Positions 19,168-63,700 are shown, counted from the first letter of the stretch. The stretch is DNA of 64,000 nucleotides from Candidatus Latescibacterota bacterium (GCA_965248265.1 CBDFJF010000002.1:3520001-3584000); one strand, 5' to 3'. Numbers and translations: made by a program. The notes: a model not told the origin generated them from the letters alone.

Positions 19168-19187
19168 CCCTCAGGAAGCGAGGGTGG

Positions 19188-32363: not shown

Positions 32364-32377
32364 GGCGACATCCCGGG

Positions 32378-33870: not shown

Positions 33871-33874
33871 CAGG

Positions 33875-44040: not shown

Positions 44041-44057
44041 GCCCTCACAGCCGCACC

Positions 44058-45437
44058 ATGTCAGAGCAGGCAACGCGACAGCAATACACACCGCCTCCTC
44101 CCGAATTGGGTCCGGGTCAGACGTCCTACACGTCGATAACGGAGAAGGTAAGCTCTTTCGTTCTGACTCCCCACACACCGTGGCAGTGGTTCTTCGTCGT
44201 ATTCGTGGGTCTGATGGGGGTGGGACTCCTGCAGTTGGCCATCGGCTACTTGTTGTACGAGGGAATCGGCATCTGGGGTCTCAACGTCCCCGTCGGCTGG
44301 GGTTTCGCCATCGTCCACTTCGTCTGGTGGATAGGAATCGGCCACGCAGGCACGCTCATTTCCGCCATCCTTCTGCTCTTTCGCCAGAAGTGGCGCACCT
44401 CCATCAACCGGTCGGCCGAAGCCATGACCATCTTCGCCGTCATGTGCGCCGGCATGTTCCCCCTGATCCATACCGGGCGCCCCTGGTTGGCCATATACTG
44501 GCTATTCCCCTACCCGAACTCCATGGATGTATGGCCCCAGTTCCGATCTCCCCTGATCTGGGATGTCTTTGCGGTGAGCACTTACTTCACCGTATCGCTC
44601 GTCTTCTGGTATATGGGGATGGTTCCCGATCTTGCCACTTTTCGCGATCGAGCCAAGTCTCCGATCGTCAAGCGCCTGTACGGGATGTTCGCCATGGGCT
44701 GGCGGGGATCGGCCATCCACTGGGAGCGCTACGAGATGGCGTCCCTCATGTTGGCCGGCCTGGCCACCCCGTTGGTCCTGTCCGTGCACAGCGTCATAAG
44801 TCTGGACTTCGCCGTCTCGATCATACCCGGGTGGCACACCACGATTTTTCCTCCCTATTTCGTAGCTGGCGCCATCTACGCAGGATTCGCCATGGTGCTC
44901 ATTCTGGTGATTCCCCTGAGGCGGCTGTACGGATTGCAAGATTTCGTCACCATACGGCACCTGGAGAACATGGGCAAGGTGATGCTCACCGCCGGGCTTA
45001 TCGTCGCATACGGCTACTTCATGGAACAGTTTATAGCCTGGTATAGTGCCAGCGTTTATGAATCGTTCATGATGCACAATCGGATGTTCGGCCCGTATGG
45101 AAGCTACTACTGGGCCCTCATTCTCTGTAACATCCTCATTCCGCAGGCCCTGTGGTCCAAGAGGGTGCGACGGAACACCACCTGGCTCTTCTTTATCTCC
45201 GTGGTCATTAGCGTGGGCATGTGGCTGGAGCGATTCGTCATCGTCATTACCAGTCTGCACGCAGACTACATGCCCTCTTCCTGGGACATGTTCTACCCCA
45301 CCTTCTGGGATTGGGCCACCTACGCGGGTACCATAGGCTTCTTCCTCCTCGCGTTCTTTCTCTTCGTGCGAGCACTGCCATTGATCGCCGCCCACGAAAT
45401 CCGAACCCTTCTCCCCTTCGGGAAAAAGGTGAAATAG
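44058..45437 (+). CDS. actC: alternative complex III NrfD-family membrane subunit
   Basis: FVWWIGIGHAGTLISA, HTGRPW, FRSPLIWDVFAVSTY, PGWHTTIFPPYF. Confidence 0.95.
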   Translation: MSEQATRQQYTPPPPELGPGQTSYTSITEKVSSFVLTPHTPWQWFFVVFVGLMGVGLLQLAIGYLLYEGIGIWGLNVPVGWGFAIVHFVWWIGIGHAGTLISAILLLFRQKWRTSINRSAEAMTIFAVMCAGMFPLIHTGRPWLAIYWLFPYPNSMDVWPQFRSPLIWDVFAVSTYFTVSLVFWYMGMVPDLATFRDRAKSPIVKRLYGMFAMGWRGSAIHWERYEMASLMLAGLATPLVLSVHSVISLDFAVSIIPGWHTTIFPPYFVAGAIYAGFAMVLILVIPLRRLYGLQDFVTIRHLENMGKVMLTAGLIVAYGYFMEQFIAWYSASVYESFMMHNRMFGPYGSYYWALILCNILIPQALWSKRVRRNTTWLFFISVVISVGMWLERFVIVITSLHADYMPSSWDMFYPTFWDWATYAGTIGFFLLAFFLFVRALPLIAAHEIRTLLPFGKKVK

Positions 45438-45464
45438 CGGGGCGTCGAACCTGCTTCGATACTT

Positions 45465-46007
45465 ATGAACCAGACTGGATCTGACACCTACGGCCTCATG
45501 GCCGAGTTCGAGACGCCCGAGGATCTGTTGGAGGCTGCCAGGCGCACCTACTCGGAAGGATACCGAACCATGGACGCCTACGCCCCTTTGCCCATCCACG
45601 GCCTGGCCGCTGCCATCGGATTTCCAAGAACCAATCTGCCCATCTTTACTTTCATCTGCGGTGCCGTGGGTGCGATCGCCGGGTACGCCATGCAGTACTG
45701 GATTCACGTCATCGACTTTCCCTTGAATATCGGTGGAAGACCGTTGCACAGTGGTCCCATGTTCATCCCCGTGACCTTCGAGTTGACCATACTGTTTGCC
45801 GCCTTGGGCACTTTCATAGGTCTGTGGATTCGCAACGGACTGCCCATGCCTTACCACCCGGTTTTTAATGTGGAAGGCTTCGAGCGCGCCAGTCAGGACC
45901 GTTTCTTCCTCTGCATCGAATCCGGGGATCCCCTCTTTAATGCCGATCGCACTGGCTCTTTCCTGCGGGGCTTGAATCCGGTAGAGGTATCGACCGTTGA
46001 CTGGTAA
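45465..46007 (+). CDS. actD: alternative complex III subunit D (DUF3341)
   Basis: GLMAEFETP, DAYAPLPIHGL, NIGGRP, PVTFELTILFA. Confidence 0.92.
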   Translation: MNQTGSDTYGLMAEFETPEDLLEAARRTYSEGYRTMDAYAPLPIHGLAAAIGFPRTNLPIFTFICGAVGAIAGYAMQYWIHVIDFPLNIGGRPLHSGPMFIPVTFELTILFAALGTFIGLWIRNGLPMPYHPVFNVEGFERASQDRFFLCIESGDPLFNADRTGSFLRGLNPVEVSTVDW

Positions 46008-46008
46008 G

Positions 46009-46596
46009 ATGCCGCGATGGCGCCATAGAGCGGCCCTGCCTACAGCACTCGCCCTTGCAGGGGCGCTGCTCCTGGGTGGTTGCGAACTCCGGCAGGCAAT
46101 GTATGACCAGCCGAAGTACGAGAGTCTCGAGGCCTCCGACCTGTTCGAGGACGGACTTTCTGCCCGCCAACCTATGGAGGGAACGGTGGCCCGAGGACAG
46201 CTCCGCCTTGACACTCACCTGTATGAGGGTAAGGTGAACGGCGAGTTGGCAACCACCATGCCTCTGGCGCTCACAGACGAACTCCCCATCCGAGGCAGAC
46301 AGCGCTACGACATATTCTGTTCCCCTTGCCATGACCGCACGGGCACGGGCAACGGAATGATTGTAAAGCGCGGGCTCAAGCAACCTCCCTCATACCACAT
46401 CGACCGTCTTAGAGAGGTCCCTATCGGATACTTCTTCGATGTCATCACCAACGGCTTTGGTGCGATGTACGGTTATGCGGATAAAATTCCCGTCAAAGAC
46501 CGGTGGGCTATCGCCGCCTACATGCGCGCTCTCCAGTTCAGCCAGCGCGCCCGGTTCGACGAACTGCCCGCAGAGGATCAGAGGCAGCTACAATGA
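46009..46596 (+). CDS. actE: alternative complex III monoheme cytochrome c lipoprotein
   Basis: Lipobox LLLGG-C, MYDQPK, GTVARG, CSPCH. Confidence 0.9.
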   Translation: MPRWRHRAALPTALALAGALLLGGCELRQAMYDQPKYESLEASDLFEDGLSARQPMEGTVARGQLRLDTHLYEGKVNGELATTMPLALTDELPIRGRQRYDIFCSPCHDRTGTGNGMIVKRGLKQPPSYHIDRLREVPIGYFFDVITNGFGAMYGYADKIPVKDRWAIAAYMRALQFSQRARFDELPAEDQRQLQ

Positions 46597-47801
46597 ACCA
46601 GGAGATTATTCGACAGTCGGAGGCCCTGAAGCCGCAGTTCGACTCCTATAGGAAGAAAGCCCTCGTCTGCGGCTTGGTGGCGGCCGCCTTCGCGATCTTG
46701 GGGTTATTCCTCGACCACGACCAGTTTTTTCGATCTTACCTGCTGGCTTTCGTCTACTGGGTGAGCCTGTCCCTGGGCAGTCTCCTGCTCCTCATGACTC
46801 ACCACCTGGCGGGAGGAAGGTGGGGATTCGCTATTCGTCGTCTCCTGGAAGGTGGTACGCGGACTCTGCTACTCATGTTCGTGCTGGGCATCCCCGTGCT
46901 GCTGGGTATTCACGAGCTCTACGAGTGGAGTCACGAAGATGTAGTGGCCGGCGACGAGATCCTCCAGATGAAGGCCTCGTTTCTGAATCCGACTTTCTTC
47001 GTGATCCGCTACGTCATCTATTTTCTGATATGGGGCGCTATGGCTGCCCTCCTCAACAGGTGGACAGCTGAGCAGGACTCCACGACGGAGACCTCCCCCA
47101 CGCGGAGAATGCAGATCCTGAGCGGGCCGGGAGTAGTCGTGTTCGTCCTCGTCGCCACCTTCGCCGCCACCGACTGGATCATGTCCCTGGAACCTCACTG
47201 GTTTTCCACCATCTACGCGGCTATTTACATCATCGGACAGATCCTGCTGACGTTTGCCTTTATGACCCTGGTGGCCGTCCGACTGTCGCGATACCAGCCT
47301 TTGAGTGCGCTGCTGACCAACGACCGTTTGAGAGATCTGGGTACCTTCATGCTCGCCTTTGTCATGCTCTGGGCTTACACCTCCTTCTCCCAGTTTCTCA
47401 TCATCTGGTCCGGCAACCTTCCCGAGGAAATCACTTGGTACTATACCCGTCTCACGGGCGGCTGGCAGCACGTGGGGTATCTGTTGGTGTTTTTTCATTT
47501 CGGCCTGCCTTTTGTTCTGCTAGTCTCCAGCCGACTCAAGGCACGAATCCCCATTCTGGTCTCCATTGCAGCCGGCCTAATGGCCATGCGGCTGCTGGAC
47601 CTTTTCTGGATCACTGCCCCTGCTTTCGATAAGACGGGCTTCACCATCCACTGGCTGGACGTGGTGCTGCCCATCGCCATGGGCGGCCTCTGGTTGTACG
47701 TCTTTTACGGGCAGCTGAGGAAGCGATCCCTCGTCCCCCTGAACGATCCGCGCTTCGATTTCTCCGCTCTTGCCGCCGCCAGCGAGGAAGCCCATGGCTG
47801 A
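46593..47801 (+). CDS. actF: alternative complex III membrane subunit F
   Basis: LYEWSH, DWIMSLEPHWFST, FSQFLIIWSGNLPEE. Confidence 0.92.
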   Translation: MNQEIIRQSEALKPQFDSYRKKALVCGLVAAAFAILGLFLDHDQFFRSYLLAFVYWVSLSLGSLLLLMTHHLAGGRWGFAIRRLLEGGTRTLLLMFVLGIPVLLGIHELYEWSHEDVVAGDEILQMKASFLNPTFFVIRYVIYFLIWGAMAALLNRWTAEQDSTTETSPTRRMQILSGPGVVVFVLVATFAATDWIMSLEPHWFSTIYAAIYIIGQILLTFAFMTLVAVRLSRYQPLSALLTNDRLRDLGTFMLAFVMLWAYTSFSQFLIIWSGNLPEEITWYYTRLTGGWQHVGYLLVFFHFGLPFVLLVSSRLKARIPILVSIAAGLMAMRLLDLFWITAPAFDKTGFTIHWLDVVLPIAMGGLWLYVFYGQLRKRSLVPLNDPRFDFSALAAASEEAHG

Positions 47802-48210
47802 GCCGATTGCACCTGAGAGTGAGAAGGACGCTCGTGGATACGAGCAGTCGGATGCATCGGCCGGCCCGATGGCAAAGGTGGCCATCGCCCTGGCGGTTTC
47901 TCTGGTGTGTATCTTCGTCGGGATCCTGGTTCTTTTCAAAGTGTTCAGCTATGCGCAACCTCGGCTGTTCGATCGGGAGCCTCACCCGCTGGCCCAGACC
48001 AGGCAACTGGCCTCCGGGACCCGCCTGCAGCTTGATCCTCCGCAGCTGAAGATCGACATGCTGGCCAACGAGAACGAGGTGTTGACTACCCACGCCTGGG
48101 TAGACCGCGAACAGGGGCTTGTGCGCATTCCCATAGATCGAGCCATCTCCATTCTGGCGAAATCGGGCCGACTGCCGCAGAAAACGGACAGCACGGAGGT
48201 CGAGCAGTAG
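47794..48210 (+). CDS. actG: alternative complex III subunit G-like membrane protein
   Basis: YEQSDA, single TM, RLQ, WVD...VRIPIDRAI; position after actF. Confidence 0.72.
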   Translation: MAEPIAPESEKDARGYEQSDASAGPMAKVAIALAVSLVCIFVGILVLFKVFSYAQPRLFDREPHPLAQTRQLASGTRLQLDPPQLKIDMLANENEVLTTHAWVDREQGLVRIPIDRAISILAKSGRLPQKTDSTEVEQ

Positions 48211-48212
48211 CG

Positions 48213-49103
48213 ATGATCGCCGTTGACTCCGCCCGATTCAATCTCCGTGCACGAAGTGCGGACGCCTGTCGCAAGACCGGGAGGCGCGGCGCTGTGAGTG
48301 CGGTCGCCGTCGTCGCCATCCAGACGTGTGTGGCCGGTGCACAGCCCCTCGACTCGCAGTTGCTGGACCAGATCGGGCTGGATCAGAATCTGGAGACGCA
48401 AATACCTCTCGACCTCACCTTTTCCGACGACAAGGGCCGCACGGTCGCCATCGGAGACCTCCTGGGTGACAGGCCGGCTCTGCTGACCTTGGTGTATTAC
48501 GAGTGCCCCATGCTCTGCACCCAGATCCTCAATGGACTGACGCGCAGTTTGCGCGTGCTCTCCTTCGATGTGGGGAAAGAGTTCGATGTTATCACCGTCA
48601 GCATTGACCCGGATGAGACTTCGAGTCTAGCCGCGGCGAAGAAGAAGGAGTACGTGAAGCGCTACGGCCGGACCAGCGCCGATCGTGGGTGGCACTTTCT
48701 CACTGGACGCCAGGATCAGATCGACCGACTGGCACAGGCCGTGGGATTCCGTTATCAATACGACCCGGAAACCGATCTGTACCTTCACGCCAGCGGCATT
48801 ATGCTGCTGACCCAAGAGGGAAAGCTGGCCCGTTACTTCTATGGAGTCGAATACGCTCCCAAGGACGTGCGTCTTGGACTCATCGAGGCATCGCAGGGCA
48901 GGATCGGCTCTCCGGTGGACCAGTTGCTCTTGTTGTGCTATCAGTACGACCCGTCAACCGGGAAGTACGGTCTGGTAATAATGAATTCCGTGCGCATCGC
49001 CGGCGGGCTGACGGTAGTGACAATAGTGTCTTTCATTGTCCTCATGCTGCGCCGGGAGCGCCGCGCGAAACTGAGGCACCGGACCGCCGAGCTCCCTGCA
49101 TAG
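48213..49103 (+). CDS. SCO family copper chaperone
   Basis: YYECPMLC, VSIDP, HASG, LCYQYDPSTGKY. Confidence 0.9.
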   Translation: MIAVDSARFNLRARSADACRKTGRRGAVSAVAVVAIQTCVAGAQPLDSQLLDQIGLDQNLETQIPLDLTFSDDKGRTVAIGDLLGDRPALLTLVYYECPMLCTQILNGLTRSLRVLSFDVGKEFDVITVSIDPDETSSLAAAKKKEYVKRYGRTSADRGWHFLTGRQDQIDRLAQAVGFRYQYDPETDLYLHASGIMLLTQEGKLARYFYGVEYAPKDVRLGLIEASQGRIGSPVDQLLLLCYQYDPSTGKYGLVIMNSVRIAGGLTVVTIVSFIVLMLRRERRAKLRHRTAELPA

Positions 49104-49156
49104 GTAATCCGGTGTGCCATCGAGGTGTGACGAATCGTGAGATTAGCTGACTGAAG

Positions 49157-50092
49157 ATGTCCGACCACTTTCCACTATTTCCCGAGCAAGCCTCTACCTT
49201 TGCACTACAGGTGGATGGCCTCTATTTTTTATTGCTCTCCTTGGGTGCGTTCTTCGCGATAGGTGTGGTCTTCTTCATCATCCTGTTTGCGGCCAAATAC
49301 CGACGGCGATCCGAGGACGAGCGCCCGAAACCGATCGAAGGCTCCATCCCACTCGAATTGGCCTGGAGTATCATTCCTCTAGTGCTCTCCGTCGTGGTTT
49401 TTACCCTCGGTGCGGGAGTCTTTTTCAGGATGTACAGTGCCCCGGCGAATGCGATTGATATCAACGTCGTTGGCAAGCAATGGATGTGGAAGATCCAGCA
49501 CCCTCAGGGCAAGCGCGAGATCAATGAGTTGCACGTTCCGGTAAACCAGCCTGTACGGCTTACGCTGGCCTCAGAGGACGTGATCCACGCCTTTTTCGTC
49601 CCCGCCTTCCGGGTCAAGAAAGACGTGGTTCCCGGGCGATATAACACCATGTGGTTCGAGGCCACGAAGGTGGGAGAGTACCACCTCTTCTGCGCCGAAT
49701 ACTGCGGCACTCAGCATTCCGGTATGACCGGGCGCATCGTCGTCATGGAACAGGAGGAGTTTCAGGCCTGGCTAAGCGGCGGAGCTACGGGCGAAACCAT
49801 GGTGGAAGCGGGAGCCCGCCAGTTCCAGCAACTGGGTTGTGAGACGTGTCACAAGGAGTCCGGCCAGGGAAGGGGTCCGAAATTGATGGGTCTGTTTGGG
49901 ACTCCGGTACAAATCACTACGGGAGAAACAGTGCTCGCTGACAAGGATTATCTGCGCACCTCGATCCTGGACCCCGGCAGCCAAATCGTTGGAGGGTACA
50001 AGCCTATCATGCCCACCTTCCAGGGACAGATCAGCGAGGAGACGCTGATGCAGATTATCAGCTACATCCAATCTTTGAGTGATTCCGAGTAA
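49157..50092 (+). CDS. coxB: cytochrome c oxidase subunit II with fused cytochrome c (caa3 type)
   Basis: CuA ligands DVIH and CAEYCGTQHSGM; C-terminal CETCH...MP. Confidence 0.95.
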   Translation: MSDHFPLFPEQASTFALQVDGLYFLLLSLGAFFAIGVVFFIILFAAKYRRRSEDERPKPIEGSIPLELAWSIIPLVLSVVVFTLGAGVFFRMYSAPANAIDINVVGKQWMWKIQHPQGKREINELHVPVNQPVRLTLASEDVIHAFFVPAFRVKKDVVPGRYNTMWFEATKVGEYHLFCAEYCGTQHSGMTGRIVVMEQEEFQAWLSGGATGETMVEAGARQFQQLGCETCHKESGQGRGPKLMGLFGTPVQITTGETVLADKDYLRTSILDPGSQIVGGYKPIMPTFQGQISEETLMQIISYIQSLSDSE

Positions 50093-50116
50093 GGTCCGGG
50101 TGGAAAGCAGATAGAG

Positions 50117-51814
50117 ATGACAACCGACACAGCAATCACCCACACCAACGGCAGGGACGTTAACTACCTGAACGCCAGTTACGGCATCAAGTCCTGGCTT
50201 CTGACCCTCGACCACAAGCGCGTCGGCATACTCTATCTGGTTATGACGACGGTCTTCTTCATGATCGGCGGGATCTTCGCCTCTCTTATTCGTCTCGAGC
50301 TACTGACCCCTCAGGGTGATGTGTTCGAATCAGATACGTATAACAAGCTGTTCACCATGCACGGCGTGGCGATGATCTTCTTCTTCCTCATTCCCTCCGT
50401 GCCGGCTATACTGGGAAACTTCCTCTTGCCGATCCAGATCGGCGCTCGGGATGTTGCGTTTCCCAAGCTCAACCTTCTCAGCTGGTACTGCTACATGGTC
50501 GGCGGCACCGTGGCCACGGTCGCCATCGTCGCGGGCGGTGTCGACACGGGATGGACCTTCTATACGCCTTACAGCAGCACCTACTCCAGCTACTACGTGG
50601 CACTGGCTCTCACCGGCGTATTCATCAACGGCTTCTCTTCCATCCTCACCGGTGTCAACTTCCTGACCACCGTCCACAAGATGCGTGCCCCGGGCATGAC
50701 GTGGTTCCGGCTGCCGCTTTTCATCTGGGCGCAGTACGCCTCCAGCATCATCATGATCCTGGGCACACCGGTCGTGGCGATCACGCTCCTGCTCGTGGCT
50801 CTGGAGAACCTGCTCGGAATTGGGATTTTCGATCCGGCCCTGGGTGGTGACCCGATCCTGTTTCAGCACATGTTCTGGTTCTACTCACACCCGGCGGTGT
50901 ACATCATGATCGTGCCCGGTTTCGGTGTGATCAGCGAGGTGATCGCCTGTTTCGCCCGCAAGCGCATTTTCGGTTACTCCTTTGTCGCTTTTTCCAGCCT
51001 GGCTATCGCGCTTCTCGGCTTTCTGGTATGGGGGCATCACATGTTCACCACCGGTCAGTCCATGTACGCCGGCATGGTGTTCTCCTTTATCTCCTTTCTC
51101 GTGGGGGTCCCAACCGCGGTTAAGATCTTCAACTGGACCGCCACCCTGTACAAGGGGTCGATCTCCTTGGAGACCCCCATGTATTATGCCCTGGGATTCA
51201 TAGGCCTGTTCCTCCTTGGCGGCCTCACTGGCCTGTTTCTGTCCACCATCGCCGTGGACATCCATCTCCACGACACCTACTTCGTGGTCGCTCACTTTCA
51301 CTTTGTTATGGTGGGAGGGATGGTGATGGCATACCTGGCCGGAATCCACTTCTGGTGGCCAAAAATCACCGGCCGCATGTACTCCGAAGGATGGGCCAAG
51401 GCCAGTGCCCTTCTGATCTTCTTCGGATTCAACCTCACCTTCTTCCCCCAATTCGTTCTCGGGTATCTGGGAATGCCCCGAAGATACCACGTATACCCGG
51501 AGGAATTCCAGATCCTCAACGTCATGTCAACGGCAGGAGCTAGCATTCTGGCCGCGGGCTATGTGATCCTCTTTGCCTACCTGATTGTCTCCCTGTTCGC
51601 GGGGCGCAAGGCTGGCTCGAACCCCTGGCGAGCCGTTGGGCTGGAGTGGGAGATACCCTCCCCCCCCGGTCTTCACAACTTCGATGGTACACCGATAGTG
51701 ACGAGGGAAGCCTACGCGTACGAGGAAGAGGATGTCACCCGCGCTGATGCCGGTGCCCCCGCCGGGGAACAGATGCCTCAAGATGCAGATACGCGTAGAG
51801 GCCCAGACCGATGA
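50117..51814 (+). CDS. coxA: heme-copper oxidase subunit I, type A2
   Basis: [18 protein letters not shown] (YS signature of A2), [21 protein letters not shown]. Confidence 0.96.
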
Positions 51815-52455
51815 GCTCGCACTCCCATTCTCCAGCCCTGAATCACCAGTTCGACGATCTGCAGCAGCAGTACGAAGCCGCCAACATGGGTATGTGGGCC
51901 TTCATCGCCCAGGAGATCATGTTCTTCGGCGGACTCTTCGGCGGATACGCCGTATACCGCTACAAGTATCTGGCTGCGTTCGCTGAGGGCAGCAACCATC
52001 TCCCGATCGAGTTGGGCGCGCTCAACACGGCGGTTCTGATCGCCAGCAGCTTTACCATGGCCATGGCAGTTCGAGCCGCCCAGCAAGGAGAGAAGGACGG
52101 ACTCCTGCGGTGGATTCTGGCCACCATGACTCTGGGTACGATCTTCCTGGTCGTCAAGGTCTTCGAGTATGCTGACAAGTATCACCATGGTCTCGTGCCG
52201 GGAGTTTCTTTTGACGGCTCGGGCCAGATGAAGATCTTCTTTTCATTCTACTTCGCCATGACGGGTATGCACGCCCTGCACATGATCATCGGGCTGGGAA
52301 TCATGATTTGGCTGATTCCGAAGATCCGTCGGGGCATCTATACGCGTGAATACTTCTCCCCGATCGAGAACTTCGGCCTCTACTGGCACTTCGTCGATAT
52401 CGTTTGGATCTTTCTGTTTCCTCTGCTGTACCTGATCGGACGGGAGCCGTGGTAA
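51811..52455 (+). CDS. coxC: cytochrome c oxidase subunit III
   Basis: [38 protein letters not shown]. Confidence 0.94.
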
Positions 52456-52757
52456 ATCATGTAGTTCCGGTAAGGCTGTACTTGACGATCGTGGGGTGCC
52501 TGTTCGTCCTCACTGTGATCACGGTTCTGGCCGCGTTCATCGAGCTGGGCGCTCTGAATACGCCAGTGGCTCTCGGAATCGCCATTCTCAAGGCGACGCT
52601 CGTCGTCCTGTTCTTCATGCACGTCCGCTACAACACCCCGCTGATGTGGGTGTTCGCCGCCGCCGGGTTCTTCATGTTCCTCCTTCTTCTCGTCCTGATG
52701 ATGCAAGACTATATGAGCCGTGATTGGGAGGCGCTTCCAGTGGAGTTCTTGCTCTGA
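52449..52757 (+). CDS. coxD: cytochrome c oxidase subunit IV
   Basis: Three TMs, [16 protein letters not shown]. Confidence 0.85.
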
Positions 52758-52763: not shown

Positions 52764-53492
52764 TCACTTCTTCTTCCTGCTGGGCGGCTTGAGGCCGAAA
52801 TTCACCGTCACCGCACCGTCCGCCACCTCGATCTCCTGTACCTGGTCCGTGAAAAACTCGTGCCACGCCTCAAGGGTGTATTTCCCGGGGGGTACGTTCT
52901 CGATGGCGAAGCTGCCGTCGGCCGCACTCACGGCAAAGAAGGGATGCGGCAGGACGCCGATGTACGCCGTCATCCAGGGGTGTACGTCGCACTTGAAGGG
53001 GACCATGACCTCCGGCTGCGCAAACATGGTGCCCGGCACCGGCAGCTTCCTGATACGGGCTGGCATGGCCTTGTTGAACTCCTCGTTGACCTTGGGCATC
53101 ATGTGCACGTTGTGTAAGAGGCGGTCGCTGTTGAGGATCCTCAGAGGCTGTCCCACCATTAGACCCAGCACCCGCGGCGTGTAGGCGCAGCCGATCTGAT
53201 CCAATTCCCCAGGTCTCTTGGGGGATTCGAACGTCTGCCCCTCCAGGCCGGTCTTTATGTACACGAAGACGTTCTTCACGTTCTTGTCGGCATCGAGAAC
53301 GTAGCGCTCCGACATGTGTGGCTCCGTGTGCTTGGCCACGCAACCGGGATCGGTCTCCATCTTTACCGGCTTCGCCGGAGGGATCTTCTTCGCAACTACC
53401 TTCACCACCCCGCTGATCGTGCCCGACACCACGGGACCGGCCGACAGAGCGATAGCGGCGGCGAGTGCGATTGACAGCTTTCCAACGACCAT
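52764..53492 (-). CDS. secreted cupredoxin-like / carboxypeptidase-regulatory-like domain protein
   Basis: Signal peptide; LDQIGCAY.P, NSD..LHNVH, CDVHPWM, DGSFAIENVPPGKYTLEAWH. Confidence 0.75.
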   Translation of the reverse strand: MVVGKLSIALAAAIALSAGPVVSGTISGVVKVVAKKIPPAKPVKMETDPGCVAKHTEPHMSERYVLDADKNVKNVFVYIKTGLEGQTFESPKRPGELDQIGCAYTPRVLGLMVGQPLRILNSDRLLHNVHMMPKVNEEFNKAMPARIRKLPVPGTMFAQPEVMVPFKCDVHPWMTAYIGVLPHPFFAVSAADGSFAIENVPPGKYTLEAWHEFFTDQVQEIEVADGAVTVNFGLKPPSRKKK

Positions 53493-53493
53493 C

Positions 53494-55209
53494 TCATTCT
53501 CCTTCTACAGTTGAGTTTCTGTTGACTAACAATTGACTCCTGCGCCGAAAGCTCCTCCTCGCCGCGAACTGGACGGCGATTGTCAGCAAGGCGCCCACGA
53601 GGCCAAGGAGAATGGGCTTATTGGTGGTGGGCTTCTGCAGAAGCAGGTAGTACCAGGTGGATACCGAGCACCGAGTTCCCGCCTCCCCGTTGGACCCGTC
53701 CCAGGCTGCAAAGGCGATTGGAATGAACGCTCCCACTTCGAGCTGGAGGTCGTTCTTATCCTCCGTCCGCAAAGATCTGTGGATCAATAGCTGGTAGCGG
53801 CCATGCGAATAGGTGATCCTACCACGCACGTCCTGGGTATCAGCCGGTTGCTCCTGGAACCGGGTCATGCCCTTCGCCCTTCCCTCGCTGACTTCCACCG
53901 ACACCCCGCTCGCCTCCGGTGACACAGATGGGCTCGCATGCCAGACCCACGCGTACGCGGCACGTCGCGCATCACCCATGAGGAAGTAGGGACGCACCGC
54001 TCCGTCGGATATCTTGGTGGGAAACTGCACGGCCAGGGCGTCGTCCAGCACCGCCTGCTGCTCTAACACGCCCTGATCTTCGACGGCCGCCTCGCCATTT
54101 GCCTCGTCGGCTGTGGCGATGCTCAGCGAGGGGTCGTGCCAGGTGACGAGAAGCGCCACCTCCTCCCCGTTGTGCATGGACTTGCCGAACACGGCTGTCA
54201 CGGTCGGCGCAAAGAGGCGTGGCTCAATGATCACCTGCCCGGCAAGGGGAAACATTGCGCCCTCCCCTTCCCCCCAGCGCGGGTCATCTGCTCGCTGCGG
54301 CAGCTCCCCTTCCACGAGCGCAGATTCCAGGACGATGGCCACTTCCGGTTTCTGCGCCGGCGACAGCGAACGCACGTAGTTGGCCAGATGCCATGTCTTG
54401 ACGCGTATCTCGCGCATGGCGTCGTCGTACCTCTCCCGTTCCTCAGCAGAGATTTCCTCCTCGTCCTCTATCATGATCTGAATGTCCTCGACCTCCATAT
54501 CCATCGGAAAACTCTCTTTGATCGAGGGCATTGGGGTCCCCGCCAACCCGCCCATGAAGCGCCTGTACAGATCCTCCTCCGCATCCCCGCCCCGAAATCG
54601 CCAGCTCATGGTCAGATCAGCGGGTCGGGTCGGATAATTCCACTCATCCAGCAGGGTCAGAGCCGAAGGACCGTCGCCGCGTCCCTGCTGGCCGTGACAT
54701 TTGGCGCATTCGAGCATCTCGAAGACTCTGCGTCCCTCTGACACGCTTTCCTCAGAACCGGGGACTCTATCCACCAACGCTATCTCCAGCGGCGGGGCAG
54801 TGGCGCGCTCGAAGTGCTTCGCGAAGGTCTTGATGTACGCCACGACCGCGAGTCGCTCCTCGTCGCTGAGTCCGGGCCAGCCCGGCATGGACGTACCCGG
54901 CATGCCGTCGGTGACGATGCGGAGCAGGTCGGCGTCCGTGGGCAGCTCCCGGGACGCGGTGGAACGGATCTTATACAACCCTCGGGTGAAGTCCCGCGGG
55001 CGTGGGTTCAAACGCTCGGCCCCGGAGCCGTCCCCCGCTCCTCCCGCACCGTGACAGTGTGCGCATTTGTTGTCGTATATGGCCTTGCCTGGCCCGATGG
55101 CCCCCACGTTCCCGGCCTGTGCTTGGGCTTGCCCGACAACCCCCGCCCCCAGGGCGCAGGCCATGGCGACCGCAAACAGGGCGAGCTGTTTCGAAACTGG
55201 CATACTCAT
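53494..55209 (-). CDS. diheme cytochrome c with DOMON/EbdC-like heme-binding domain and C-terminal TM
   Basis: CAHCH, PRPRDF, GMPGTSMP, CAKCH, GTPMP; DALAVQFP, PYFLMG, AFAAWDG; ATGA overlap with the upstream gene. Confidence 0.8.
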   Translation of the reverse strand: MSMPVSKQLALFAVAMACALGAGVVGQAQAQAGNVGAIGPGKAIYDNKCAHCHGAGGAGDGSGAERLNPRPRDFTRGLYKIRSTASRELPTDADLLRIVTDGMPGTSMPGWPGLSDEERLAVVAYIKTFAKHFERATAPPLEIALVDRVPGSEESVSEGRRVFEMLECAKCHGQQGRGDGPSALTLLDEWNYPTRPADLTMSWRFRGGDAEEDLYRRFMGGLAGTPMPSIKESFPMDMEVEDIQIMIEDEEEISAEERERYDDAMREIRVKTWHLANYVRSLSPAQKPEVAIVLESALVEGELPQRADDPRWGEGEGAMFPLAGQVIIEPRLFAPTVTAVFGKSMHNGEEVALLVTWHDPSLSIATADEANGEAAVEDQGVLEQQAVLDDALAVQFPTKISDGAVRPYFLMGDARRAAYAWVWHASPSVSPEASGVSVEVSEGRAKGMTRFQEQPADTQDVRGRITYSHGRYQLLIHRSLRTEDKNDLQLEVGAFIPIAFAAWDGSNGEAGTRCSVSTWYYLLLQKPTTNKPILLGLVGALLTIAVQFAARRSFRRRSQLLVNRNSTVEGE

Positions 55210-55964
55210 TCCCATGTCCTCGGAACCTGGCCGGTGGCCTCGTACATGAAGAGGATGACCTGCCAGATCTCCTCCTCCGTGAGCATTTCCTCCCAAGCGG
55301 GCATGGCCGAGCTCCACGGCGCCGAGATCGCGGGCAATCCCGGTCCCCCCTTGCTCACGCGCCAGAACACGAACGATTCCTGGAGCATGGCGAGGGTCCC
55401 GGGATCTGTGAAGTCCGCGGGGGGGGGACTGAAGGCGTGGGCGAACATGCCGTTGCCATCCAGGTCGTCGCCGTGGCAGAAGTGACAGTTCTGATAGTAA
55501 GTGGCCCGTCCCGCCTCCATGTGCCGGTCGTGGTTGCCGCCGTCATGACGCAGCGGGTTCTCCAGGCCGGCCAGGTCGATGTCCCGGCCGCGAAACTGAA
55601 TCGAGGCTGGAGGCGCTGGGTGAACGGTCCTCAGCTCCGCCGGGGGAACGCTGCTGACGGATGAGTTCGTGAACACGACAAAGGCCACCGCCAGAGGCAG
55701 GAAGGTGAAAACGACGATGCGGTGACGGGCTTTGTCTTCGTCGGCCAGCAGCTCCCCGATGGGACGGATGAACTCCCTAAGCCTTTCGTTTTCGACGCCG
55801 ATCTGCGACAGGATCCCGATGATGATGAGACCCATGTACAAGTAGACGATACTCGCCGGCAGCGGCGGCCTGACGCCGTAGGCCAGGCCGACGTAGCACA
55901 CGGCGACCAGGATCACCGCCTTTGAGAAACTCGAAAGCTGCCTCACGGCCTCCTCATTCGGCAC
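55206..55964 (-). CDS. membrane-bound monoheme cytochrome c
   Basis: Three TMs, ELRTVHPAPP, CHFCHG, SAMPAW. Confidence 0.85.
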   Translation of the reverse strand: MPNEEAVRQLSSFSKAVILVAVCYVGLAYGVRPPLPASIVYLYMGLIIIGILSQIGVENERLREFIRPIGELLADEDKARHRIVVFTFLPLAVAFVVFTNSSVSSVPPAELRTVHPAPPASIQFRGRDIDLAGLENPLRHDGGNHDRHMEAGRATYYQNCHFCHGDDLDGNGMFAHAFSPPPADFTDPGTLAMLQESFVFWRVSKGGPGLPAISAPWSSAMPAWEEMLTEEEIWQVILFMYEATGQVPRTWE

Positions 55965-57342
55965 TTTCAGGCACAGAGCCCTTGAGGCTGGCCAGATAGG
56001 CGACCAGGTCGCGAAATTGCCTCACGGTGATGACGTCGTCGAATTTGGGCATTTTGGACTGCACCAGAAGCCTGCGCCCGGCAACGTTGGAGAGATCGCT
56101 CTTGGCGATCGTCAGCGTAGTGTCGGCGCTGCGGATCGTCAGGCTGGCCTCGTCTTCGTGCTCTATTGGGCCGCTCACCTTGTTCTCGCCGTCGCCGACG
56201 ACGGCGCTGATCCAGAAGTAACCCCGATCGGAAATCGACCGCGTATCGGCTATGGGCAGAAGCGCCAGATCGTCACGCTGCACGAGTCGCTCAGCACCCC
56301 CAGAGGCACTTTCGTCAACCGCTACTTCCTCCACCTCCTCCACATCTTCTTCCTCCTCCTCCTCACCCCATCCCCAGTCGTCGTCCTCCGCTTCCTCCAC
56401 CACGTCCAGTTGCAACACCAGCGCATCGCCCTCTTCCCTGACGAGTCTTCCCGCGAGCTCCTCGCCGTTGGCCAGGCTGAGCGTCGTCGATCCGTACCCC
56501 TGAACGATCTTGGCGTTGGGATCTAGGATCGATTCCTCCATGTAGTCCAACGTGTTGAGGGCCCCGATCTCCGTCAATTCGGGACCGACCTCCAGCTGGA
56601 CCTCGGCTGCGCCTACGCGGTGGCATTTGTCGCACTGCAGCTCCTCGACAAAGACCAGTCGACCGGCCTCGGGATCTCCCTGGGCTACCTTCTCGGGGAC
56701 CGCGGCGGCCGCGGTGATATCGATGGGCGGCACGATGGCCGTCAAATCCGGTTCGCCGCCCTGGCTCTGGAGAAAGGCGATCAGCGTTTCGATTTCCAGG
56801 GGGGAGAGGGCGATGGGAGGCTTCCACGCCGGAGGCATTATGTTGCCGTACCCCTTTACCAGATAAGCCTCCGGTAGGTACAGCGCCTCCACCAGATAAT
56901 CCCGGGTCGACGTGTCTTCCTGGCGTCCTCCGCCCGCGATGCCGATATCGCTCAGGTCCGGACAGCGCGGCGTAGTCGCCGACGCTCCGATGACGTGGCA
57001 GGTGGAGCACTTGCCCTTGCCGTAGAAGATCGACTTCCCCGCCGCGACAAAAGCTTCTGGGGTGCGCTCGATGTCACCGACGGCCACGGCGGCGCCGGAG
57101 CTACCCTGGGGGATGAGATTTCCCAGTAGGGCGTAGGACCAGATCACGGCCAGCGCGAAAGTCGCCAGCCGCATCAGATTCTGTTGTAGCGCCATGTTGG
57201 CGCAGATGGCCAGGAAGACCCACACCGACCACGACAGGATGTTCTGGTCAGCCAGGGGAAAAGGCGCAGCTCCCATCAGGAAAGCCCCCAGGCTCAACAG
57301 GAGAAGGGCGAAGATGAGAATCTTTACAGGTGCCCGGTGCAT
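55954..57342 (-). CDS. membrane-bound diheme cytochrome c
   Basis: N-terminal TMs, CSTCH...MP, CDKCH, GPEL, ESILDP, C-terminal SKMP. Confidence 0.82.
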   Translation of the reverse strand: MHRAPVKILIFALLLLSLGAFLMGAAPFPLADQNILSWSVWVFLAICANMALQQNLMRLATFALAVIWSYALLGNLIPQGSSGAAVAVGDIERTPEAFVAAGKSIFYGKGKCSTCHVIGASATTPRCPDLSDIGIAGGGRQEDTSTRDYLVEALYLPEAYLVKGYGNIMPPAWKPPIALSPLEIETLIAFLQSQGGEPDLTAIVPPIDITAAAAVPEKVAQGDPEAGRLVFVEELQCDKCHRVGAAEVQLEVGPELTEIGALNTLDYMEESILDPNAKIVQGYGSTTLSLANGEELAGRLVREEGDALVLQLDVVEEAEDDDWGWGEEEEEEDVEEVEEVAVDESASGGAERLVQRDDLALLPIADTRSISDRGYFWISAVVGDGENKVSGPIEHEDEASLTIRSADTTLTIAKSDLSNVAGRRLLVQSKMPKFDDVITVRQFRDLVAYLASLKGSVPESAE

Positions 57343-57359
57343 GGATTTCGTCTCCGCCC

Positions 57360-59087
57360 TCAGTTGGCAGCTTCCTCTTTCTTATCGCCCAACGATCCGA
57401 GCCAGAAGATGAAGCAGATCAAGGCGCCGAAAACGATGACGATGGCGGCGATGATGTTGGACGCGTCACCCACGGTCGGGGTGAAGGCATCTGGTGATGT
57501 GTCCCTCATGACGCCGTATATGTGCCAGTCCTCCCGGATGCCCGACCGCACGTACCCCATGAGTCCCATCATGGCGCAGAATGTGACAGCCAGCAATATG
57601 AGGATGTACTGAGACTGGTCCGTCATCTTACCCCACTGCACTTCGCCGGTGGATGAGGCCCGTCGATAGAGGATGACATCGAGGACGGTCACCGAGAACA
57701 GGACCGCCAGAACGACTACCACCTGTCCAGGGGTCAGGACGTTCACCCGCTCCAGACTGGGCACGTAGTACCCCATAACGCCAAGAACGACCACGATGGC
57801 GGCGGCGGCGGCGAAGATGGTGAACACCACGACGTTGACGGGTTTGGACCACCTCAATGTCGGGGTTTTGCCGGATCTGCGGTAAAAGAGAAAGGTCAGG
57901 AACGTGGTGAGGATGATGAGGTTTACGGCCGTGTTCTTGGCCGACATAACTCCGAAGACTCCCACGAGCGGATGGTGTTCACCGCCGATGGCCGCCTTCT
58001 CCACCGGGCTCAGGATCAGGGTCCTGGGAGTTGCCCACACGGCAATGCAGGCGATGAGGACCGCGAATACGAAAGGTCGGTACCGGCTGTATCGCTCGGC
58101 GCCTTTGATGCGGCCCATCCCCGACCACAGGTAGAAGTTCACGCCCAGGAAGAGTACGCCGATCATGGCCGCCTGAATGATGAACAGCCAGGAGAACAGG
58201 CTGCCCATCATGTTGATGCCCATGGTCTGGTTGAACTCGTAGATCTCCTTGGCGAGCCAGTACCCGGCAAAGGGCAGGGGGATGAGGGCGCAGACGGCGA
58301 TAAAGTTTCCGGTGTACCCCATCCAGTCGTAGTGGGCTTTGTCCGATTCGCTCGTGGCCGTGAGGAATCGGACCGCCGCGTAGGCAGCCACGACGGCTCC
58401 CCCGAAGGCGATGTTGGCGATGAAGCGATGTATGTTGATCGGCATCCAGGTGAAGTTGTAAACCGCATCCCCAAGACTGATCAGAGCTCCCTGCTCATCT
58501 ATTCCTGCCGGGCTGGTCATGAAGGTGAGCCAGGAATTGGCCACGCACATGATCGCCGTACCGAAGACGTTGAGTAGCACGCCGAAGGTCAGGTGCAGCC
58601 ACTTCCGGTTCATCAGCCGGTCCCACGTGTACCAATACAGATAGAGGCTGAAGGTCTCTCCGAAGAAGAGCGCCACGTAGAGGACGTACGTGGGCGTGAA
58701 AATATTGGTCATGTAGCCAAAGAAGCGGGGATAGAACCCGATCATCAGAAACAGCAGCACGGCACCGAACATGGCCGTGGTGGAAAACGCCACGAGACAC
58801 AGCTTGATGAACTCGCGGGCCATGCGGTCGTAGCGCGGGTCGCCGGTGCGCACACCGACGAACTCGATGATGAGGGCAAAGAGTGGGACACCGAGGATGA
58901 AGGCGGCGAACATGAGGTGGAGCTGGGCCGCAACCCAGACCGCGACCCGGCTGCCTACCACGGGGAATTCTCGGTACTCTGGGATGTCGGAGAAGGCGCC
59001 CTGGGACCAGGCCGGTGTGCTCGTGAAGAGAAGTATCAGACCGAAGGAGATGGCCGTCAGTGGCGGTGAACTGTGGCCCTCTGGCAT
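57360..59087 (-). CDS. cytochrome bd-like oxidase subunit I (no Q-loop motif, no cydB in the operon)
   Basis: QLHLMFAAF, FFGET, ANSW..FMTSPAG, NIHRF align with CydA; C-terminus GYVRSGIREDWHIYGVMR; start ATG 59087 (alternative 59198). Confidence 0.8.
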   Translation of the reverse strand: MPEGHSSPPLTAISFGLILLFTSTPAWSQGAFSDIPEYREFPVVGSRVAVWVAAQLHLMFAAFILGVPLFALIIEFVGVRTGDPRYDRMAREFIKLCLVAFSTTAMFGAVLLFLMIGFYPRFFGYMTNIFTPTYVLYVALFFGETFSLYLYWYTWDRLMNRKWLHLTFGVLLNVFGTAIMCVANSWLTFMTSPAGIDEQGALISLGDAVYNFTWMPINIHRFIANIAFGGAVVAAYAAVRFLTATSESDKAHYDWMGYTGNFIAVCALIPLPFAGYWLAKEIYEFNQTMGINMMGSLFSWLFIIQAAMIGVLFLGVNFYLWSGMGRIKGAERYSRYRPFVFAVLIACIAVWATPRTLILSPVEKAAIGGEHHPLVGVFGVMSAKNTAVNLIILTTFLTFLFYRRSGKTPTLRWSKPVNVVVFTIFAAAAAIVVVLGVMGYYVPSLERVNVLTPGQVVVVLAVLFSVTVLDVILYRRASSTGEVQWGKMTDQSQYILILLAVTFCAMMGLMGYVRSGIREDWHIYGVMRDTSPDAFTPTVGDASNIIAAIVIVFGALICFIFWLGSLGDKKEEAAN

Positions 59088-59316: not shown

Positions 59317-59543
59317 GGAATTGAGACGATTTCGTCCCACATCGTCGTCGCCATGACTGCCCCACTCCATACGGACACATGTGGAGGGCGTCGGCCTGCC
59401 AGCGCCGCGTTTGACTGCGCCGCACTATACCGTATATCCTGCCTAACCGTCAATCAAGAAAAAGCGGATTGAGCGGGGGAACGGTTTGTGTTGAGGCGAA
59501 TTGGAGACAAAACTGAAAGTGAAAACTAGCATTCGTCTTTTAT

Positions 59544-59590: not shown

Positions 59591-60091
59591 GTGCTTACCT
59601 TCGAAACCTTCATTCTTTGGCTACATCTGGCAGCTGCAGTAATTTGGTTTGGAGGCATGTCCTTCGTGACCTTCGTACTACTGCCACTATTGCAACGCTC
59701 CACCTCCTCCCCGAGAGAATTCTCTGGGATAATCGAGAGGGCAGTGAGGCGTTTTCAAACCATCAGTTGGGAGGCGGTCGCAATCATATTTATTACGGGA
59801 ATTTTCAATCTAACCAATGCCGGGATTGTGCGTGAATTTAATTTTAGCGTGGCCTATTTGCATGTAGTGGCCATAAAGCTGCTTCTCCTTGTCGTGATCA
59901 TTGCCATCCAGTCGTTTCAAAGCTACAGTATTTTGCCAAAACTTATTTGTGCGCCATCGTCGGACGAAAACTTGCCGTCGAGGTCGGACTCCTTCGACAG
60001 ACTTCGCAAGAAGACAATATTCCTGTCAATTCTGAATTTAGTATTGGCCGGCTCAGTGATTTATTTAGGGTTGGGGCTGAGGTATCAATAA
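59591..60091 (+). CDS. CopD/DUF4149-like four-TM membrane protein
   Basis: WLHLAAAVIWFGG, ITGIFN, IKLLL. Confidence 0.7.
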   Translation: MLTFETFILWLHLAAAVIWFGGMSFVTFVLLPLLQRSTSSPREFSGIIERAVRRFQTISWEAVAIIFITGIFNLTNAGIVREFNFSVAYLHVVAIKLLLLVVIIAIQSFQSYSILPKLICAPSSDENLPSRSDSFDRLRKKTIFLSILNLVLAGSVIYLGLGLRYQ

Positions 60092-60105
60092 GGAGAAGGC
60101 GAGGC

Positions 60106-60624: not shown

Positions 60625-60703
60625 CTTGTATTGAGACTATTCGATGATAGACTCGGAGTATACCAGCAGGCCACTGCAGCCTCGCTGAGCCGGCGATCCG
60701 TCT

Positions 60704-61219: not shown

Positions 61220-61241
61220 TGTATCAGAGTATCAGAAAAAA

Positions 61242-62464: not shown

Positions 62465-63700
62465 ATGGTTTCCCATAACGAGTACCGCCCGTCCCTGATC
62501 TCCTGGAACCTCACGAAGATGTGCAACCTGCGGTGTCCGCACTGTTACCTAGACGCCGGCAAGAAAGAGGAGGATGAGCTCACCACCAATGAGTGCTTTG
62601 CGCTTATTGACGAGATGAAGGTATTGGGAACGGAAATGCTCATTCTTACCGGTGGGGAGCCACTATTGCGAAAGGATATCTATGATATCGCAAAGTATGC
62701 TTCCGAGCGGGGCATTTGGGTTGTTATGGGCACAAACGGCGTTTTAGTTACTGACAAAGTTGTGCAGAAAATGTTGGAATGTGGCGTAAAAGGCGTGGGC
62801 ATCAGCATTGATTCAGTGGATCCCGAGAAGCACGATGGATTTCGCGGGGGTCCCAAATCATGGGAATATTCGGTTCGGGCGTTGGAAATCTCTCGAGCCT
62901 ACGGTTTGGAAGTCCTGGTTCAAACGACGATCATGGAAACCAATTACGACGAGATTCCCCAACTGATTGACTTTGCCAGAGAGAAGGGAGCCTGGTCCTT
63001 CAACCTCTATTTTCTGGTGCAGACAGGCCGCGGCCAGGAAATGAACGATCTATCTCCACAGCAGACCGAGGCGATGCTCACGAACCTGGTTGAGTTACAG
63101 AACGAGTATCGACCCATGCTGGTGCGCTCCAAATGTGCACCGCACTTCAAACGCATTGCCTTTGAGAGAGCACTGGGGGGTCTAGAGAGCGGGGGGTGCA
63201 TGGCAGGCACTCAATATGGGCGGATTACACCTGAAGGAAATGTGACGCCATGCCCGTACATGACGGTCGTTGCAGGCAACATTAGAGAAAACAGACTCAC
63301 AGAAATCTGGCAGACTGCTCCAGTTTTTCAGGAATTAAGGAATCTGAACCAACTGAAAGGCCGCTGTGGAGGCTGTGAGTTTAAGGAGTTGTGTGGCGGC
63401 TGTCGCTGTCGGGCCTACGCTGCTTATGGCGACTATTTGCAGGAAGATCCGGCCTGTACATATCAACCATCCGGCCAGCCATTACAATTCGAAACAATCA
63501 CTTGGAATGCCGAGGCCAAGTCTCGTCTCGGGCGCATCCCTATTGCCTTTATTCGTGAGAAGGTTAAGAAGGGAGTGGAGACCTATGCGCAGCGTATTGG
63601 GGCTCGTGTCATCACCGCAGAATTGATGAAGATGGCTACGGCCGGCATGGAACGGCCGGCGACTTTCAATAAATTAAGAGAAAGTGAACATCACGAATGA
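62465..63700 (+). CDS. radical SAM/SPASM protein (NirJ/AhbC/AhbD-like) with C-terminal PCP_red-like domain
   Basis: CNLRCPHC, TGGEPLLR, CMAG...VTPC, CGGCEFKELCGGCRCRA; tail WNAEAKSRLGRIP.AFIREKVKKGVETYA. Confidence 0.85.
   Translation: MVSHNEYRPSLISWNLTKMCNLRCPHCYLDAGKKEEDELTTNECFALIDEMKVLGTEMLILTGGEPLLRKDIYDIAKYASERGIWVVMGTNGVLVTDKVVQKMLECGVKGVGISIDSVDPEKHDGFRGGPKSWEYSVRALEISRAYGLEVLVQTTIMETNYDEIPQLIDFAREKGAWSFNLYFLVQTGRGQEMNDLSPQQTEAMLTNLVELQNEYRPMLVRSKCAPHFKRIAFERALGGLESGGCMAGTQYGRITPEGNVTPCPYMTVVAGNIRENRLTEIWQTAPVFQELRNLNQLKGRCGGCEFKELCGGCRCRAYAAYGDYLQEDPACTYQPSGQPLQFETITWNAEAKSRLGRIPIAFIREKVKKGVETYAQRIGARVITAELMKMATAGMERPATFNKLRESEHHE

Follow-up and report, generated by a model that had tools for sequence, protein, structure and literature searches.

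Key nitrifiers and manganese oxidisers are considered to reduce O2 chiefly through bd-like oxidases of the OR-N family; none of these enzymes has been characterised, and in nitrifiers the type of gene cluster considered here had been taken for a component of nitrite oxidation. In Nitrospira moscoviensis the published cluster combines bd-like_3 and two membrane cytochromes c with alt_NxrC_2, a protein that has a single membrane helix and two haem c motifs, and its genes are highly transcribed (PMC6606698). The bd-like protein of Nitrospina gracilis is described as having 14 helices, with its haem b ligands kept, three helices replacing the Q-loop, and cupredoxins encoded nearby (PMC3578206), while the counterpart in Ca. 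Manganitrophus is TO_1 (10.1101/2021.11.15.468770). The nxr gene cluster of Kuenenia stuttgartiensis encodes Kustd1711 (PDB 7zs0), a crystallised diheme cytochrome c whose haems are reported at potentials near +350 mV and whose surface is strongly negative (PMC11791136). As defined by Murali et al. (10.1101/2021.01.16.426971), OR-N enzymes have no quinol site and no haem c motif, their operons encode alternative electron donors, and the family is widely distributed in Bacteria; the subfamilies OR-N1 and OR-N2 are both of the 14-helix kind, and an OR-N2 operon often contains no other cydA-like gene. O2 reduction has been proposed for these enzymes (10.1101/2021.01.16.426971; PMC10839748; PMC12342949). 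The present analysis concerns a cluster of five genes (G1 to G5) at positions 52764-59087, minus strand, of a 64,000-nucleotide (nt) stretch of DNA from Candidatus Latescibacterota bacterium (GCA_965248265.1 CBDFJF010000002.1:3520001-3584000), hereafter the window, of which 56 open reading frames (ORFs) were scanned against protein families. Overall, the cluster is a new member of an enzyme type that is already known, though uncharacterised, and that occurs commonly outside the nitrifiers as well.

The five ORFs run head to tail and encode a CydA-like subunit (G1), diheme and monoheme membrane cytochromes c (G2 and G3), a diheme cytochrome c carrying an EbdC/DOMON-like domain (G4) and a cupredoxin (G5), with coordinates collected in Table 1. 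Spacings are 17 nt between G1 and G2 and 1 nt between G4 and G5, and overlaps are 11 nt between G2 and G3 and 10 nt between G3 and G4, the last value being given for a G4 start at ATG 55215; the longest ORFs would begin at GTG 59198 for G1 and at 55317 for G4. The initial annotation of this DNA, made from the nucleotide sequence, had proposed five tightly coupled minus-strand genes at this position, which is confirmed, and its gene identities are likewise borne out by family scans, CxxCH motifs, AlphaFold2 (AF2) models and Foldseek searches. Its assignment of the cluster to the type found in Nitrospira and Nitrospina, and here also in anammox bacteria, holds as well: the parts are the same, the order of G1 to G4 is kept in 71 of 80 loci (all locus-level counts refer to the best 80 loci among at least 579 confirmed species genomes), and G2 matches Kustd1711 of the Kuenenia module (E 2e-39). 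Common to the window and the N. moscoviensis, Manganitrophus, Nitrospina and Kuenenia modules are a 14-helix bd-like protein without a Q-loop, two membrane cytochromes c, an NxrC-like protein that has two CxxCH motifs and one transmembrane helix, and cupredoxins encoded close by. Unlike the nitrifier and anammox modules, the window has no nxr genes in view, and an alternative complex III (ACIII) and a caa3 oxidase adjoin the cluster instead; also unlike the nitrifier modules, the host relates to a Latescibacterota metagenome-assembled genome (MAG), and G5 is translationally coupled to G4.

On the evidence of family profiles, alignment and modelling, G1 belongs to the cytochrome bd superfamily. 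It matches Pfam Cyt_bd_oxida_I (PF01654, E 5.5e-23), with only the N-terminal 240 profile positions covered, and approximately its first 200 residues align with solved structures, the best of which is Geobacillus CydA (5doq_A, E 6e-13). Alignment of the G1 family profile with E. coli CydA by hhalign (probability 94.6%, residues 46-246 against 8-212; E. coli residue identities taken from the K-12 record) pairs H57 with His19, Y137 with Glu99, E144 with Glu107 and H220 with His186, and places H165 within a few residues of His126. In the AF2 model of G1 (predicted local distance difference test, pLDDT, 85.5; pTM 0.86), a helix at residues 9-27, either signal or anchor, is followed by 14 long helices, some of which occupy the region of the canonical Q-loop. 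A Foldseek search of the PDB with this model returned CydA chains for all of the top 10 matches (E 1e-10 to 2e-6, TMt 0.51-0.60; best match 7oy2_C, E 1e-10), with CydB chains scoring weaker.

Conservation was counted over the window G1 and 80 fetched orthologues (n = 81). The equivalents of His19 and His186, whose retention the initial annotation had noted by eye, are indeed kept (H57 in 79/81, H220 in 81/81), and so is its replacement of Glu99 by tyrosine (Y137, 80/81). Besides H220, the residues E144, H165, H372, M507, M510, R514, R518, W521 and H522 are conserved in 81/81 sequences, and H252 in 79/81. The quinol-binding loop reported as missing is missing by both measures applied: no K....E motif occurs anywhere in G1, and the alignment to E. 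coli CydA ends at residue 212 of the latter. The proposal that the string RSGIREDW represents the E445/GRQPW region is not supported by sequence, the local alignment score being 35 against a shuffled mean of 31.4 (sd 6.4) and E519 being Glu in only 18/81 sequences, so that a Glu445 equivalent is not established.

These features, as predicted from sequence and model, match the published description of the 14-helix OR-N type: G1 keeps the His19 equivalent, has neither a quinol site nor a haem c motif (no CxxCH), and is encoded with alternative donors, and the single CydA-like gene per operon resembles OR-N2. Unlike OR-N as described, G1 has Tyr in place of Glu99; E99 and E107 are both present in most subfamilies of the 'a' type (10.1101/2021.01.16.426971). 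With canonical CydAB (E. coli 6rko, Geobacillus 5doq), G1 shares the fold and the first four to five helices carrying equivalents of His19, Glu107, His186 and a His126-like residue, whereas it differs in its low identity (~13-17%), the lack of the Q-loop residues K252/E257 and of CydB, five extra helices, the N-terminal signal or anchor helix, and the cytochrome c and copper partners. A canonical CydAB was ruled out since the Q-loop and CydB are missing and only ~200 residues can be aligned. OR-C proteins, which carry C-terminal haem c domains, are like G1 in that cytochrome c is the presumed donor and in that a few G1 relatives carry a fused c domain; this class was ruled out for G1 by the lack of CxxCH and by 14 helices rather than ~8. 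A paralogous partner of the CydAA' kind was also considered, and a second G1-like gene occurs in just 1/80 loci (L025), which makes hetero-pairs the exception in clusters of this kind. No CydB family match was found among the 56 window ORFs, and tblastn with E. coli CydB, a search of low sensitivity, gave 0 matches (E<1e-3) across the window plus 80 related loci; within this scope the noted absence of cydB is borne out.

Turning to the partners, G2 carries two haem c motifs (CSTCH at 112 and CDKCH at 237), belongs to Pfam Cytochrom_C and TIGR02603, and starts with three hydrophobic segments; it also contains an acidic insert and one additional domain at the C-terminus. Its residues 54-314 match Kustd1711 (7zs0_A) with E 2.1e-39, and the +350 mV haems of this homologue would suit a donor to an oxidase, not a reductant of quinone. 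G3, with a single motif (CHFCH at 160), approximately three N-terminal transmembrane segments and a match to Pfam Cytochrome_CBB3 (E 3.5e-9), is the best conserved partner (40-82% identity over 27 homologues). With the two motifs of G4, the CxxCH count over G2, G3 and G4 (2+1+2) amounts to five c haems.

G4 begins with a signal peptide, followed by a diheme c domain (CAHCH at 51, CAKCH at 170; Pfam Cytochrom_C), the EbdC/DOMON-like domain and a C-terminal transmembrane helix (534-552). The diheme domain matches 6h5l_B (E 1.6e-48), and 6H5L is named as a Kuenenia HAO entry in a 2026 preprint. The second domain matches EB_dh (E 3.5e-12) and TIGR03477, the haem b subunit of DMSO-reductase type II enzymes (E 3.9e-24; 85 bits, under the 170-bit cut-off), and its EB_dh part aligns with EbdC itself (2ivf_C, E 1e-4). 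The haem b of EbdC is held by Met108 and Lys201, which we take to be its axial ligands and whose numbers coincide with M and K in 2ivf_C; in the alignment these correspond to M413 and C516 of G4. Over 70 G4 homologues the three commonest residues in the Met column are Phe (31), Trp (14) and Met (7), and the Lys column holds Arg (54), Gly (9), Cys (2) and His (2), with Lys in 0/70; the closest relative of the window (L001) has Arg there. The two columns thus read Met/Cys in the window, Phe/Trp with Arg in most relatives, and His/His in a Nitrospinae locus (L063), the only such locus in the 70-sequence set. Hence the EbdC/DOMON-like label given initially to G4 stands for the fold family (EB_dh, TIGR03477), while the Met/Lys haem b ligand pair is not kept, which makes the label 'periplasmic cytochrome b' doubtful outside the nitrifier lineage. 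The domain may not be a cytochrome b in these organisms, and the distribution of ligand residues suggests that its haem binding is lineage-specific. That the EbdC haem b ligand pair is not conserved in this family is a new point of the present analysis.

Pfam and NCBIfam gave no cupredoxin match for G5, only a weak CarboxypepD_reg match at its C-terminal domain. Foldseek with the AF2 model (pLDDT 89.4) returned amicyanin, pseudoazurin and plastocyanin (E 1e-5 to 1e-3, TMt 0.55-0.74), and the set H127, C168, H171 and M174 (C-x2-H-x2-M) is invariant in 22/22 aligned homologues; on account of these matches and this ligand set, the earlier term 'cupredoxin-like' was right. From fold and ligands, G5 is a predicted type-1 copper cupredoxin, anchored or secreted, for which copper binding is expected. 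A G5 homologue directly follows G4 in 28/80 loci, is found elsewhere in the locus in 8, and was not detected in 44; in Gemmatimonadota loci coxB comes directly after G5. In five Poribacteria loci (L003, L004, L005, L007, L011) a G5-like cupredoxin gene lies directly upstream of G1. It is a second copy in the first three, the other copy lying downstream of G4 (the two genes are at 9076-9840 and 17940-18728 in L004), and the only match in L007 and L011, of which L011 ends before the downstream position. The ACIII of Chloroflexus works with the blue-copper carrier auracyanin, and the gene layout of the window resembles that system in placing a tethered type-1 copper protein beside an ACIII and a terminal oxidase; unlike auracyanin, G5 bears a CarboxypepD_reg-like domain in addition and shares its transcription unit with the bd-like genes.

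Gene order, natural fusions and modelling provide three lines of evidence that G1 to G4 form one complex. G1-G2-G3-G4 stand in this order on one strand in the 71 loci mentioned above, and each of the remaining 9 is cut off by a contig end within 2.3 kb of G1. G5 is less constant, following G4 directly in the 28 loci counted above. Three of 18 compared representatives of at least 640 amino acids (aa) are natural fusions of G1 with cytochrome c: to a G2-like diheme domain in P0121 (E 3e-35), to a G2-like monoheme domain in P0130, and to another cytochrome c domain in P0126. Having one or two c domains, these fusions blur the published boundary between OR-N and OR-C. A complex model of G1 (36-575) with G3 reached an ipSAE of 0.68 (three runs: 0.71, 0.64, 0.68), and the best of 3 controls reached 0.00; the mark applied is reached by 58/80 solved complexes versus 2/110 mismatched pairs, counts that apply only roughly here since the model was made with alignments of our own. 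The runs share at least 50% of contacts, with a partner pLDDT of at least 74. In the modelled interface (G3 31-62 against G1 314-353, 357-375 and 489-491), the second membrane helix of G3 (31-62) lies on helices 8-9 of G1 (314-353), and the G1 loop 357-375 holds the invariant H372; the contacted parts of G1 are family-specific. None of the solved structures searched showed a bd-like protein together with a cytochrome c, which makes recall of a known structure by the model unlikely. The model supports, and does not show, binding of G3 by G1. Taken together, the colinearity, the fusions and the G1-G3 model, which passed its controls, substantiate the conserved multi-subunit membrane redox module that had been suspected at this locus.

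The module is widely distributed. A scan of one genome per species matched at least 591 stretches, of which at least 579 were confirmed as relatives, and 7130 of the 8000 candidates scored in a word-indexed protein search proved to be relatives, with Candidatus Poribacteria supplying the best of those that carry a name. Among representatives clustered at 50% identity there were 1281 matches at E<=0.001 and 209 at E<=1e-30. Phylum labels of the best 80 loci are Acidobacteriota (33), Poribacteria (16), Gemmatimonadota (11), Rhodothermota (4), and Myxococcota, Chloroflexota and Nitrospinota (2 each), with five further phyla represented once each and 7 loci without a phylum label. What had been presented as an oddity, the occurrence of this cluster in an apparent non-nitrifier, is thus the norm, as only 2/80 of the best loci are labelled Nitrospinae; those two (L063, L079) are colinear with the window, with G1 52-53% identical. 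By FastTree, the window G1 is sister to that of a Candidatus Latescibacterota MAG (L001; 93% amino-acid identity, support 100), followed by L002 and then a Poribacteria clade, and the window runs collinear with L001 across 14.6 kb, in which 86.5% of nucleotides are identical. The E. coli CydA branch in this tree is ~5 changes per site long, and as this is the sole canonical sequence included, the tree is no test of the whole superfamily. The nearest ESM Atlas clusters carry PF01654 and are commonest in Nitrospirota (score 0.97), which is a lead only. No literature on bd-like oxidases in Poribacteria, Latescibacterota, Gemmatimonadota or Acidobacteriota was found, one search bringing up only work on nitrifiers or Nitrospirota, with the limit that the tables of Murali et al. 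may list these phyla.

With about as much belief as doubt, we read the cluster as a CydB-less, quinol-independent terminal oxidase fed by cytochrome c and cupredoxin. Sequence, fold and modelling show G1 to be the haem-b-binding membrane core, G2 to G4 to be periplasmic cytochromes c tethered to the membrane, and G5 to be a type-1 copper protein. Electrons of the quinol pool might leave via the adjacent ACIII to high-potential carriers, soluble or tethered and including G5, from which they would pass through the c haems of G2, G3 and G4 to the His186-equivalent haem of G1 (H220). This haem would in turn reduce the active-site haem pair of the His19 equivalent (H57), where O2 would be reduced to water; protons could be taken up via a Glu107/His126-like channel (E144, H165), and the resulting charge separation would add to the proton motive force. 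The oxidase would then constitute a second terminal branch alongside caa3, unconnected to nitrite oxidation in this organism. We favour this reading because the bd active-site residues are kept, the only partners are c-haem and copper proteins, the Kustd1711 homologue is of high potential, and the respiratory neighbours are aerobic. The part of the initial annotation that had electrons exchanged with periplasmic carriers rather than quinol is supported by the same partners together with the lack of a Q-loop and of a CydB in view. Its further suggestion that the substrate may not be O2 finds no evidence among the present results.

Several observations weigh against an oxidase of this kind. The Glu99 equivalent is a tyrosine, no residue of G1 could be aligned with Met393 or Glu445, and there is no CydB, a subunit that in canonical enzymes takes part in the active site region. 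The +350 mV potential was measured on Kustd1711 and not on G2, and, as stated in the papers describing such clusters, no OR-N enzyme has been purified or characterised. Furthermore, genes for an ActA/ActB-like pair and for a monoheme c directly precede G1 in 32/80 loci, and the quinol subunits ActC/ActF are missing there, which hints at a quinone-linked role for G1. According to this alternative, helices 6-14 of G1 would carry a new quinol/quinone site and the complex would act like ACIII, or would drive electrons uphill from high-potential carriers to quinone, roles proposed for Nitrospina and Nitrospira (PMC3578206, PMC6606698). In the loci concerned, which are of Acidobacteriota type, G1 is indeed the only large polytopic membrane protein. 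The pair consists of an ActA-like pentahaem cytochrome and an ActB-like Fe-S protein and, like the monoheme c, is encoded on the same strand as G1 (at 5466-9788 in L018; L024, L031, L052 and L061 are further examples); L049 has, besides this pair, a canonical ACIII of its own that includes ActC. Still, no quinol site can be recognised in G1 (neither K....E nor a Q-loop alignment), quinone reduction from haems at the +350 mV of the G2 homologue would be steeply uphill, and the window already has a complete ACIII with ActC/F-like subunits, so that we hold a quinone-linked hub to be unlikely, if worth keeping in mind.

The composition of G4 raises a different prospect, namely that G1 is a non-catalytic membrane anchor or electron collector and that the NxrC/EbdC-like domain docks a periplasmic molybdoenzyme, as has been suggested for NXR. 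Matches of G4 to TIGR03477 and EB_dh, the His/His pair at the EbdC ligand positions of the Nitrospinae locus L063, and the presence of this cluster in or near nxr clusters of nitrifiers and anammox bacteria (PMC6606698, PMC11791136) all fit such an arrangement. It is nevertheless markedly improbable here: apart from ActB, no NXR-like or other molybdoenzyme catalytic subunit was found among the 56 window ORFs, the EbdC ligand columns are mostly Phe/Trp and Arg (Met in 7/70, Lys in 0/70), and strict conservation of active-site-type residues of G1 would be hard to explain in an anchor. The altered active site (Glu99 replaced by Tyr, Glu445 not located) could also speak for an enzyme that reduces or detoxifies some other small oxidant, for instance nitric oxide (NO) or hydrogen peroxide (H2O2), in place of a respiratory O2 reductase, all the more as canonical bd enzymes have NO and H2O2 side activities (cited in PMC10839748). 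To this we assign a probability slightly lower again than to the anchor, since no specific signal points to it and the neighbours are genes of aerobic respiration, not of denitrification or stress.

Location of the module beside ACIII and caa3 and its presence in hundreds of genomes of phyla not known for nitrification argue for a general respiratory role. An extension of this thought, rather unlikely in its full form, is that the four-gene core is a free-standing, NXR-independent oxidase supplied by high-potential cytochrome c and cupredoxin, an overlooked major one in Acidobacteriota, Gemmatimonadota, Poribacteria and Latescibacterota. If so, the DOMON-like domain would have lost its haem b outside nitrifiers; Acidobacteriota would have captured ActAB(E) without ActC/F, and the extra helices of G1 might hold a new quinol site; and a set of AhbD/NirJ-like radical SAM, PCP_red and Mrp proteins would make or insert a special haem. 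Irrespective of this, the wide distribution broadens the choice of organisms for purification or knockout, and the non-conserved NxrC-like haem b ligands and the radical SAM module travelling with the cluster are concrete testable leads.

Table 1. Positions of the G1-G5 cluster and of neighbouring features in the window
Feature	Position	Strand	Size, evidence or remark
G1: CydA-like 'bd-like' subunit	57360..59087	-	575 aa
G2: membrane-anchored diheme cytochrome c	55954..57342	-	462 aa
G3: monoheme cytochrome c	55206..55964	-	252 aa
G4: diheme c, EbdC/DOMON-like domain, C-terminal anchor	53494..55215	-	
G5: predicted type-1 copper cupredoxin domain, C-terminal CarboxypepD_reg-like beta-sandwich	52764..53492	-	242 aa
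Sigma-70-like promoter match (TTGACG-18 nt spacer-TATAGT), weak	59424..59453	-	upstream of G1; 10/12 matches
Alternative complex III, actA-F-like	40376-48210	+	Pfam/NCBIfam
SCO1	48213-49103	+	Pfam/NCBIfam
caa3 oxidase coxBACD	49157-52757	+	Pfam/NCBIfam
CopD-like small membrane protein	59591..60091	+	Pfam CopD E 6.7e-11; divergent from G1
AhbD/NirJ2-like radical SAM/SPASM protein, C-terminal PCP_red domain	62465..63700	+	divergent from cluster

The ACIII-SCO1-caa3 block (40376..52757) is convergent on the cluster, the stop codons of coxD and G5 lying 6 nt apart. Of the 80 loci, 52 encode a homologue of ActB (32 loci) or of CoxA (26 loci) at a distance of up to 10 kb from G1. The promoter match upstream of G1 is weak, the scan for promoters and terminators being a consensus match only with 4 sites in the region versus 2.1 expected.

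On the other side of the cluster, the radical SAM protein stays below the 500-bit cut-off of two models, one of haem b synthase and one of NirJ2, with 350.6 bits for TIGR04055 and 322.3 bits for TIGR04545. Its function could be that of a coproheme decarboxylase working without O2, or of a haem maturase dedicated to the cluster. Homologues occur in 31/80 loci, and in the three loci scanned (L001, Latescibacterota, 386-6957; L018, Acidobacteriota, 14775-20544; L067, Gemmatimonadota, 6636-9981) a protein with Usp and PCP_red domains is encoded beside it; L001 and L018 also carry an Mrp/NBP35 ATPase and a small PCP_red protein. That such a radical SAM module travels with the bd-like cluster is another new point of this analysis.

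The CopD-like protein also matches NF033808 (E 3.6e-13, below cut-off) and has a counterpart in the same place in L001 (77% identity). Three small ORFs without a family match (60106-60624, 60704-61219 and 61242-61604) follow it in the interval between the cluster and the radical SAM gene; all four genes (59591-61604) are kept in L001 at 77-89% identity, and for two of them homologues turn up in a small number of loci from Rhodothermales or Calditrichia. The ~860 nt upstream of the radical SAM gene (61605-62464) hold no convincing ORF and no Rfam match, Rfam yielding only two tRNAs across the window. Farther away, several large ORFs without Pfam matches occupy 31203-35791. A secreted-looking protein of 496 aa, likewise with no Pfam match, is encoded at 28967-30457 on the minus strand next to tRNA-Leu (28091-28178) and smpB; it is composed of highly charged repeats of ~110 residues rich in Glu, Arg and Gln, and its region has a strong strand skew (GC skew -0.17, AT skew -0.26).

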